Source: Candidatus Micrarchaeota archaeon (GTDB taxonomy: Archaea; Micrarchaeota; Micrarchaeia; Anstonellales; Bilamarchaeaceae). From it: a DNA stretch of 64,000 nt. Of this stretch, positions 13,612 to 47,741 are shown piece after piece. The translations under genes and the position numbers were made by a program. Every line of letters begins with the position of its first letter. Positions within the stretch are counted from its first letter, which is position 1. Location of the stretch: NCBI GenBank assembly GCA_043821365.1, contig JBDRCX010000006.1, positions 519,417 through 583,416 on the forward strand. The letters run 5' to 3'. Under the pieces are notes generated by a model. It was not told the origin of the DNA, did no database searches, and saw only the letters and a program-made list of their open reading frames with translations.

Positions 13612-14148
13612 TTAGCCTACTGCTGTCCTATTCCTTCCACCAGTTCCATACTGTCTTCTTCCGATACTTGCCCTTAGACCTAAATCTGGTTTTTTGAGTA
13701 CTCCATTCTGTCTTACTAAAAGAATTGCTTGTGCTGAAAACTCTCTATCACTAATCATCTTCAGTAGCTGTATAGTTGTTTTATTAAGGGCAAAACCAGA
13801 ACTTGTTACTTTTGATAGTAGTTCTAAACCATATTTTGTAAGTTCCTTTTTTGTTTCTTTATGTCCAACCATCTCAAGTGCTCTTGTCAATAATACCTGT
13901 CCACTAACTTCTACGAATTTCATCCAGTAATCTGTTGATGGAAATTTGTCAAACATCTCACTGATTTTACTAAGTTCTGAGGTTGAGGTTTCGCCTTTTA
14001 CTACTGCCACAATTGTTTGGCCAATAATTGCAAGTTTTTTTACATTTTCATTATGATCTCTTGACAACACTTCAACAATTTTGTTTCCATCCACTTCTCC
14101 TGAGTACCATATTAAAGTGAAAAACATTGTTCTTGTATCATCATCCAT
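13612..14148 (-). CDS. Hypothetical protein immediately downstream of the giant gene
   Basis: 178-aa ORF starting 8 nt after the giant ORF stop, on the same strand. Helical, with a G/R-rich C-terminus (GRRQYGTGGRNRTAVG). Confidence 0.5.
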   Translation of the reverse strand: MDDDTRTMFFTLIWYSGEVDGNKIVEVLSRDHNENVKKLAIIGQTIVAVVKGETSTSELSKISEMFDKFPSTDYWMKFVEVSGQVLLTRALEMVGHKETKKELTKYGLELLSKVTSSGFALNKTTIQLLKMISDREFSAQAILLVRQNGVLKKPDLGLRASIGRRQYGTGGRNRTAVG

Positions 14149-34160: not shown

Positions 34161-34178
34161 TTTTTTTATTTAAAAAAG

Positions 34179-34251
34179 TAGCCCCGAGCGGATTCGAACC
34201 GCTGTCAATGGATCCAAAGTCCACTATCCTTGACCGCTAGACGACGGGGCT
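34179..34251 (-). tRNA. tRNA-Gln (anticodon UUG), 73 nt, intron-less, no encoded CCA
   Basis: Reverse complement AGCCCCG-TC-GTCT-AGCGGTCAA-GGAT-A-GTGGA-CTTTGGA-TCCAT-TGAC-AGCGG-TTCGAAT-CCGCT-CGGGGCT-A folds as a cloverleaf. Confidence 0.9.
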
Positions 34252-34317: not shown

Positions 34318-34731
34318 TATAGGCTCGAGAAATCCGCAGCAGTAACCGCAGAAGAACATGGCAAAGGAGTTTCTGATGCAGGATGGAAAATATTCACGAA
34401 TATCCTAAGCTACAAAGCGGCAGAAGCTGGTTGTGAAGTAATATTTGTGAATCCAAAAAATACGTCTAAAGTTTGCAACAGGTGTGGTTCATCTGTGCCA
34501 AAGAGGCTATGGGAAAGACAACATATTTGTCCTTCATGTGGTTTGAGCATGGATAGAGACCTCAATGCTGCGATAAATATACTCGAAAAAGCTACTGTTG
34601 GAATGGCAGGAAGTAACGCTTGTGTTGGAGAGCAACGCTCTTCGACAGCTAAAGGTTCAAAGCCTTTAGATGGAGATGTTTCAAAAGAAACGTCAATGAA
34701 GCAGGAAGCTCACATCCCTAGATGTGGGTAG
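34318..34731 (+). pseudogene. Remnant of an IS200/IS605-family TnpB (OrfB) gene; only the C-terminal approx 137 codons remain
   Basis: The open frame from 34318 encodes ...GVSDAGWKIFTNILSYKAAEAGCEVIFVNPKNTSKVCNRCGS...CPSCGLSMDRDLNAAINI...SMKQEAHIPRCG (RuvC-II/Zn-ribbon/RuvC-III end). The N-terminal two thirds are missing. Confidence 0.75.
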
Positions 34732-47493: not shown

Positions 47494-47741
47494 AGCCTCC
47501 GGAGGGGATTGAACCCCCGACTTCCTCCTTTCCCGCTTTTCGTAAAAGCGGGACCAAAACTAATTTGCTAATTTTTGCCCAAGGCAAAAATGGTAAACCA
47601 AAAAACCCTGGAGGGTTTTTAAACAATCAGTTTTGATCCAACTTTTTCTAAAAGTTGGTTACAAGAGAGGCGCTCTACCGTTGCACGCCTTGCGGACAAA
47701 TCTTTTACAGATCGCCGTGCAAGACTCTGAGCTACAGAGGC
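47494..47741 (-). tRNA. tRNA-Thr (anticodon UGU) with two introns: approx 45 nt in the D-loop and approx 130 nt at the canonical 37/38 site
   Basis: Minus-strand exons GCCTCTG-TA-GCTC-AGA / CGGTA-GAGC-G-CCTCT-CTTGTA / A-GGAGG-AAGTC-GGGGG-TTCAATC-CCCTC-CGGAGGC-T assemble into a 73-nt cloverleaf. The anticodon is at 47661-47663. Confidence 0.8.

Follow-up and report, generated by a model that had tools for sequence, protein, structure and literature searches.

An interrupted tRNA-Thr(UGU) gene in a Micrarchaeota genome and a four-hairpin intron family with host-matched splice helices

Whether a tRNA gene of 248 nt, 72 nt of which are exonic, can yield a tRNA, and where its inserts come from, are the questions raised by the locus at 47741-47494 on the minus strand of the window. 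The window is the whole stretch of DNA analyzed here (64,000 nt, C6:519417-583416) and belongs to a 1.2-Mb, 36% GC, six-contig genome of the Micrarchaeota (DPANN) that is 87% complete. The neighboring TyrRS gene product has its best relatives in Micrarchaeota MAGs (54 to 86% identity). We put at roughly 85% the probability that the locus is a functional tRNA-Thr(UGU) gene with two bulge-helix-bulge (BHB) introns that would be cut by an epsilon2 endonuclease, with exons that would be joined by RtcB, and with a large intron that would come from a family multiplied in the genus.

When the minus-strand segments 47741-47726, 47680-47660, and 47529-47494 (73 nt) were joined, ARAGORN identified a tRNA-Thr(tgt) with a 7-bp acceptor stem, a 4-bp D stem, a 5-bp anticodon stem, and a 5-bp T stem. 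The unspliced 248 nt were detected neither by ARAGORN nor by the Rfam tRNA model. The spliced sequence has no exon defect and agrees with the mature sequences of orthologues, which bears out the initial annotation of the locus as tRNA-Thr(UGU), interrupted by one intron in the D loop and by a 130-nt four-hairpin intron at position 37/38. The 73-nt cloverleaf proposed there stands in its stems and identity, but the mature tRNA is most likely 72 nt, with the A at 47726 intronic. A 72-nt mature model aligns without mismatch to the gene (L176) and leaves introns of 46 and 130 nt. All segments lie on the minus strand. Exon 1 (47741-47727) comprises the acceptor 5' strand, U8 A9, the D-stem 5' strand GCTC, and A14 G15. 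Exon 2 (47680-47660) comprises the remainder of the D loop, the D-stem 3' strand, the anticodon-stem 5' strand, and loop positions C32 to A37, including the anticodon UGU (47663-47661). Exon 3 (47529-47494) comprises A38, the anticodon-stem 3' strand, the variable loop, the T arm, the acceptor 3' strand, and the discriminator U73; CCA is not encoded. The locus was found with zero differences in contigs of three independent DNA runs; the DNA runs in which it occurs are metagenomes of groundwater and biofilm. A search of RNA sequencing runs for the locus gave no match, and the runs that matched were DNA only.

The boundary of the smaller intron follows from its relatives. The D loop is 7 nt long, AG(Y/A)GGTA, in all orthologues without a D-loop intron, and all homologous D-loop introns have symmetric 3-nt bulges. 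Because of this loop length and junction geometry, the A at 47726 is most likely intronic; the intron then measures 46 nt (47726-47681, minus strand) at position 15/16 and leaves a mature D loop of AGCGGTA. The initial annotation gave the D-loop insert 45 nt, with a boundary that was off by one base. The intron is homologous to D-loop introns of tRNA-His in the same genome and of tRNA-Val and tRNA-Thr in relatives. In these homologues, a 4-nt segment set back 2 nt from the 3' splice site matches the D-stem 5' strand and forms the central helix (H), which is flanked by the bulges AG-A and AA-Y (the hyphen marks the splice site) and by a GYCUUG/CAAGGC helix. The D-stem/H pairs are GUAU/AUGC, GUCG/UGAC, GUCG/CGGC, and GCUC/G(U/C)GC, so that H covaries with the D stem. 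At this locus, H joins G10-C13 (47732-47729) to GUGC (47686-47683) with three of four pairs and a central U.U mismatch, the bulges are AG-A and AA-C, and a 7-bp outer helix (h') joins GUCUUGC (47725-47719) to GCAAGGC (47693-47687). The D-stem match, the bulges, and the intron helix together read as a BHB motif. The BHB conformer has a predicted energy of -16.5 kcal/mol versus -17.6 kcal/mol for a conformer with a TTGCACG/CGTGCAA stem, and h' is present in the full-length minimum-energy fold. The TTGCACG/CGTGCAA stem had been singled out earlier and is a genuine complementarity, but it is not conserved in homologous introns, where GYCTTG(C)/(G)CAAGGC is, and we rejected it as a functional helix.

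The larger intron (130 nt, 47659-47530, minus strand, position 37/38) contains four hairpins. A covariance model, R1, was built from four sequences (this gene, orthologues L018 and L006, and the tRNA-Thr(CGU) gene of the same genome) and scores the intron at 123.5 bits; the four hairpins are kept with compensatory changes in the other three. Hairpin 1, CCAACUUUU-AGA-AAAAGUUGG (47658-47638), begins 1 nt past the 5' splice site and supplies the outer helix that follows the 5' bulge U36 A37-A. Its helix (helix 1) is 95.6% paired in 53 copies, and 10 of 10 pairs show compensatory change. The 5' tail, AUCAAAACUGAUU (47637-47625), forms helix 2 with its partner at 47565-47553, in which 13 of 13 pairs are made here, 84.9% are paired across the 53 copies, and nine pairs are changed on both sides. 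Hairpin 2, AAAAACCC-UCCA-GGGUUUUU (47620-47601; helix 3, 99.5% paired), has the family consensus AAAACCC-uuuc-GGGUUUU. Hairpin 3, AUUUUUGCC-UUG-GGCAAAAAU (47591-47571; helix 4, 98.7% paired, six of eight pairs compensatory), is followed by a conserved single-stranded UAGCAA. Hairpin 4 is UCCCGCUUUU-ACG-AAAAGCGGGA (47553-47531; helix 6, 97.1% paired). The four hairpins lie at the very coordinates first assigned to them, and all helices covary. The two ends of the intron had also been described as imperfect inverted copies, and they are: when the last 38 nt are reverse complemented and aligned with the first 38 nt, 27 of 39 columns are identical. The alignment score of 13 exceeds those of all 2,000 shuffles (-7.6 ± 3.4, maximum of 5). 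Every position of the tails ATCAAAACTGATT and AATTAGTTTTGGT is paired (13 of 13), which gives a 13-bp helix between the inverted ends.

In the 53 best copies, 93.5% of the cells in the tail helix and the four hairpins are paired, versus 36 to 65% when partner columns were slid by 1 to 3 positions, and 375 cells were doubly changed versus 44 to 64 in the slid controls; none of 500 shuffles reached the observed values, and all these figures are somewhat inflated because the alignment had been fitted to the structure of the model. G-U pairs are more frequent than A-C mismatches (79 versus 26), as expected of a structure that is read on the sense RNA. Unconstrained folding did not return the BHB and preferred closed hairpins in a four-way junction, and we therefore relied on covariation rather than on energy. 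An Rfam search at a permissive threshold (E values up to 5) returned only noise and no match to a group I intron or any other family, and there are no C/D boxes in the 130 nt.

As had been pointed out, the sense strand of the intron contains runs of T (T6 at 47605-47600 and T5 at 47590-47586), and such runs could terminate archaeal RNA polymerase. Hairpin 2 with the T6 run resembles a terminator inside the gene, and the 13-bp tail helix resembles the pairing between the halves of Nanoarchaeum split tRNAs. Both features would fit a pseudogene inactivated by the insertions. They would also fit a split gene, with halves made as separate transcripts and trans-spliced by way of the complementary tails. 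We consider either very improbable, as all pieces are contiguous and collinear within 248 nt, the exons are without defect, no TATA-like promoter sequence was seen by eye upstream of exon 3, and inserts of the same architecture lie in D and T loops, where a division into halves would make no sense. The tRNA complement of the genome also argues against them. A cloverleaf finder, ARAGORN, and a pattern search of the genome found a single gene for each of Thr(UGU), Thr(CGU), and Thr(GGU), and the gene at 47741-47494 is the only one found that reads ACA, the commonest Thr codon (26.7 per 1,000 codons in 506 long ORFs). Unless the 13% of the genome that is missing contains an intact copy, the UGU gene must therefore be functional. 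Interruptions of the same kind affect most tRNA genes of this genome. A default ARAGORN scan found 8 tRNA genes and the Rfam tRNA model 18 above its cutoff, and a search permitting D-loop and anticodon-loop inserts found many more. Standard tools thus miss most tRNA genes in such genomes, which biases the annotation and completeness estimates of these DPANN genomes.

The junctions of the large intron suggest how it is probably removed. In 31 anticodon-loop copies of the family, a 4-nt segment set back 2 nt from the 3' splice site pairs with tRNA positions 32 to 35, with all four pairs made in 19 copies. In the canonical register, counted from the anticodon stem, this helix (H) had a mean of 3.42 of 4 pairs versus 2.61 ± 0.12 after shuffling (P of about 5e-5), and the anticodon bases 34 and 35 alone gave 1.58 versus 0.93. 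An earlier test of exon-intron matching, with splice sites taken from the ends of covariance-model hits, gave no signal (P = 0.16), because many copies have their true 3' splice site beyond the end of the model match. Examples of H are CUCU/GGAG (Glu), UUGC/GCAA (Gly), UUCG/CGAA (Ala), and CUUG/CGGG or UAGG (Thr UGU). Here, C32-G35 CUUG (47665-47662) pairs with CGGG (47535-47532) at four of four positions, including two G.U pairs, between the bulges U36 A37-A and A A-A38. Computationally, both introns present two 3-nt bulges around a 4-bp helix, with three of four pairs in the D-loop intron and four of four in the anticodon-loop intron. The CGGG strand overlaps the base of hairpin 4, so H and hairpin 4 compete and the precursor must switch conformers. 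Some other copies pair poorly, among them the intron of the tRNA-Thr(CGU) gene of this genome with one of four H pairs, and such family members need very relaxed recognition.

The genome encodes the enzymes expected of such introns. A 393-amino-acid protein matches the epsilon2 endonuclease of ARMAN-2 (4FZ2) over its full length (E = 3.5e-132), and an RtcB ligase is present (E = 1e-141). The ARMAN-2 enzyme cleaves strict and relaxed motifs in vitro (PMC3239211, PMC12397907). The RtcB gene (C6:673872-676544) is a 910-amino-acid open frame in which the Pfam match falls into two parts about 1.4 kb apart, which suggests an intein or other large insert. The genome also encodes a second, single-unit EndA-like protein of 163 amino acids (C6:480404-480892, L082:1291-1782). 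This paralogue was considered as a dedicated factor of the intron element and rejected, since it is present in 96 of the 99 genomes of the taxonomic family and the element in 36 of them.

Given the gene anatomy, the conservation, the covariation, the distribution of the family, and the enzymes present, both introns are most likely spliced by the endonuclease. We infer transcription through the introns into a precursor of about 250 nt, in which the epsilon2-type enzyme would cut two BHB motifs. At the D loop, the D-stem 5' strand would pair with GUGC near the 3' end of the intron in a relaxed motif, with its U.U mismatch, 3-nt bulges, and a 7-bp intron helix. At the anticodon loop, the anticodon stem would serve as the lower helix, and hairpin 1 would stack as the upper helix. 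RtcB would then ligate the three exons into a 72-nt tRNA, to which CCA would be added last. The rest of the 130-nt intron (the tail helix and hairpins 2 to 4) would act as a conserved autonomous scaffold, and each copy of the family has a 4-nt stretch fitted to its host.

The scaffold is not peculiar to this gene. The initial annotation had called for a search of the genome for further copies of the 130-nt element and would have been contradicted by an element confined to this locus with no BHB-compatible junctions. R1 matches 14 places in this genome, and H covaries among the homologues of both introns. Across the taxonomic family, 36 of the 99 genomes have matches, with 0 to 29 per genome, and almost all of the matches are in the genus of the window. 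The host tRNAs are those for Thr, Gly, Gln, Ile, Pro, Val, Glu, Asp, Ala, Arg, and Lys. The copies lie in anticodon loops (at least 31), D loops, and T loops, in the 3' trailer of tRNA-Pro(GGG) in two genomes, and in the 23S rRNA of one relative, and 53 of the 53 best copies are in the sense orientation of the host RNA. Copies at unrelated sites are about 80% alike and no closer than orthologues, except for one 98% pair at the same site of two Lys isoacceptors; the identity of about 80% persists between genomes whose TyrRS sequences are only 65 to 70% identical. From this distribution, the four-hairpin scaffold appears to be an intron family that multiplied among the tRNA sites of the genus, while the kind of gene is itself known for Micrarchaeota.

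Two of the locations lie beyond tRNA sequence. The full four-hairpin element occurs outside any tRNA in this genome (C6:717450-717582, L116:151-283) and in a relative (L148), where it begins 1 to 2 nt past the tRNA-Pro(GGG) discriminator and stops immediately upstream of the next gene's ribosome-binding site; splicing would not be needed there. A 179-nt copy (80.9 bits) was found in another relative near the 3' end of a 23S rRNA gene (L146:201-379; genome G013, contig C81), with a host match to positions 2646 to 2987 of Rfam LSU_rRNA_archaea (E = 9e-75), so that the family also forms an rRNA intron.

Orthologous tRNA-Thr loci were compared for the presence of each insert, another check called for at the outset, and full-length, internally deleted, and empty states were all found. 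Of 80 related loci, 26 have a tRNA-Thr(UGU) gene upstream of TyrRS. Among these 26 syntenic orthologues, 6 have no intron, 13 have only an anticodon-loop intron (36 to 136 nt), 6 have D-loop and anticodon-loop introns, and 1 has three introns. A scan within the genus gave the same mixture. Exons and synteny with TyrRS are thus conserved across the Micrarchaeota, while introns come and go. The states are scattered on the TyrRS tree, and sister pairs disagree: L018 has only a 136-nt anticodon-loop intron, and L024, separated from it by TyrRS branches of 0.03 to 0.04, has a 76-nt D-loop and an 83-nt anticodon-loop intron. The intronless gene of L002 has exons identical to those of the two-intron gene of L006. 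The short introns look like long forms from which the interior has been deleted, with both ends preserved. In L001, the nearest relative by TyrRS, the upstream neighbor is a different one, and no tRNA was found there.

These states bear on whether the intron is kept for a function of its own. The excised RNA, which RtcB would probably circularize, might be what selection conserves, in parallel with the C/D-box introns of tRNA-Trp. Consistent with such a role are the conserved interior, with AAAACCC..GGGUUUU of hairpin 2 and the single-stranded UAGCAA, its identity of about 80% across unrelated tRNAs and across genomes as divergent as those cited above, and the fixed orientation. The intron has, however, neither an Rfam match nor C/D boxes, and many orthologues have 47- to 56-nt deleted versions or no intron at all. 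The interior is therefore dispensable for the tRNA and the cell, and we regard a retained function of the excised RNA as improbable relative to a spliced intron of a multiplying family.

How the family multiplied is a separate question, and here the symmetry of the element invites comparison with transposons. The 130-nt insert could be a nonautonomous DNA transposon (MITE/REPIN-like) with hairpin terminal inverted repeats, tolerated because the endonuclease removes the RNA copy. The inverted ends are a family-wide feature, and the element is multicopy, nearly confined to one genus, found in D, anticodon, and T loops, a 3' trailer, and 23S rRNA, and variably present in sister species. In addition, a hairpin-plus-CAAAAC module resembling the ends occurs in tandem and inverted arrays between giant-virus genes, and the genome encodes a Y1 transposase and a TnpB fragment. 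The behavior of the copies is different. All 53 are sense to the host RNA despite symmetric ends, no target-site duplication was seen (flanking direct repeats do not exceed a 1-nt ambiguity), and different-site copies do not show the near identity of a recent burst, the Lys pair excepted. The helices covary with tolerance of G-U pairs, each copy carries a host-specific H strand, and the Y1 transposase gene is flanked by unrelated GC-rich palindromes that lack the module. Fixed orientation, a host-fitted H, tolerance of G-U pairs, and the absence of both target duplications and near-identical copies fit an intron family maintained at the RNA level better than a DNA transposon, which we consider unlikely, although less so than a retained function of the excised RNA. 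The description "MITE-like" was right on form, in that the ends are inverted, but is probably wrong on mechanism, given sense-only copies with about 80% identity, more G-U than A-C, and a host-matched 4 nt.

The solo IS200-type Y1 transposase of this genome (C3:96623-97072) has 149 amino acids (E = 8e-31); a REP/RAYT-like link to the introns was considered for this single gene and rejected, since its flanks are GC-rich palindromes and not the A/T-tract module. At 34384-34581 of the window, plus strand (C6:553800-553997), a TnpB-type zinc-ribbon domain (PF07282, E = 1.9e-25) lies in a 137-amino-acid open frame between tRNA-Gln (34178-34251) and an interrupted tRNA-Val, and it looks like the remnant of an IS200/IS605/IS607-type element beside tRNA genes.

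The inverted ends of the intron are two copies of a module found genome-wide, with a variable stem, a U4-loop-A4, and a CAAAAC tail. It occurs at about 80 places in the genome, 48 of them with the tail. Upstream of tRNA-His, at C6:696734-696756, the module GTTTTGATG with its hairpin stands in the orientation of the 3' end of an intron and ends 4 nt before G-1, so modules also bracket tRNA 5' leaders. The module pattern was found at 38 loci in viral contigs, versus roughly 10 expected from a composition estimate. One viral contig with NCLDV capsid and poly(A) polymerase genes carries 38 modules in direct and inverted intergenic arrays. Dozens of copies of the same hairpin-plus-CCAAAAC module are present in giant-virus contigs (L213, IMG/VR 3300027770_003349, e.g., 13777-14076; L218:8159-8333; and L239), with direct arrays downstream of a gene and inverted arrays upstream of the following one; CACCTTTTAGGAAAAGGTG-nAG-CCAAAAC is an example. 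A search of the viral contigs with the hairpin-2 pattern and the model found no full four-hairpin element, only the short module. The viral and Micrarchaeota modules may be alike through homology or convergence. We hold it doubtful, as doubtful as a function of the excised RNA, that the module is the end of a mobile element shared across domains and that the introns are copies surviving in essential RNA genes. Such copies would survive because most of the splice motif is carried along and only 2 to 4 host-matched bases are needed. If that were true, it would provide a concrete mechanism for the birth and spread of archaeal tRNA introns.

Whatever its source, the intron family addresses the origin of archaeal tRNA introns and their route to noncanonical positions. 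It is large, easy to recognize, and structurally constrained. Its copy number, which varies from 0 to 29 per genome within one genus, its full, deleted, and empty sites, and its host-tracking 4 nt make intron gain, decay, and loss directly traceable, and its copies are natural substrates for testing the requirements of the epsilon2 endonuclease. In the literature searched, we found no description of a conserved four-hairpin intron family with inverted ends, and the only earlier lead on the origin of archaeal tRNA introns was the similarity among short Thermoproteales introns.

Some Euryarchaeota tRNA-Trp introns carry C/D-box guide RNAs (cited in PMC4090602). The family described here resembles these introns in being long (about 100 nt), structured, conserved, and situated at 37/38, but it has no C or D boxes and no Rfam hit and is not bound to one tRNA. 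MITEs and REPINs are nonautonomous DNA elements with inverted, hairpin-forming ends. The intron family shares with them inverted ends of about 35 nt, multiple copies, and a patchy distribution among species, but differs in its single orientation, in its host-specific splice-site pairing, and in the absence of target duplication, of a near-identical burst, and of a linked transposase.

For the transposed tRNA introns of the Thermoproteales (Fujishima et al. 2010, as summarized in PMC4090602), the mechanism of spread is left unexplained in that summary. As far as they are described there, a BHB is likewise kept at each site, but the phylum and the endonuclease type are different, and the Micrarchaeota elements are much longer, have a covarying secondary structure and inverted terminal modules, and occur also in a 3' trailer and in 23S rRNA. 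The disrupted tRNA genes of ARMAN-2 (Candidatus Micrarchaeum acidiphilum) belong to the same phylum and are served by the same three-unit endonuclease (PMC3239211, PMC3488258, PMC12397907), and strict and relaxed BHB junctions are common to ARMAN-2 and the genome analyzed here. The two ARMAN-2 introns used in cleavage assays measure 13 and 25 nt (PMC3239211), whereas those of the tRNA-Thr(UGU) gene measure 46 and 130 nt, the larger belongs to a conserved four-hairpin family with inverted ends, and the upper BHB helix is replaced by a junction bracketed by hairpins. The reading of the locus as a tRNA gene with two introns is supported, and the new part is the four-hairpin intron family with its host-matched splice helix.
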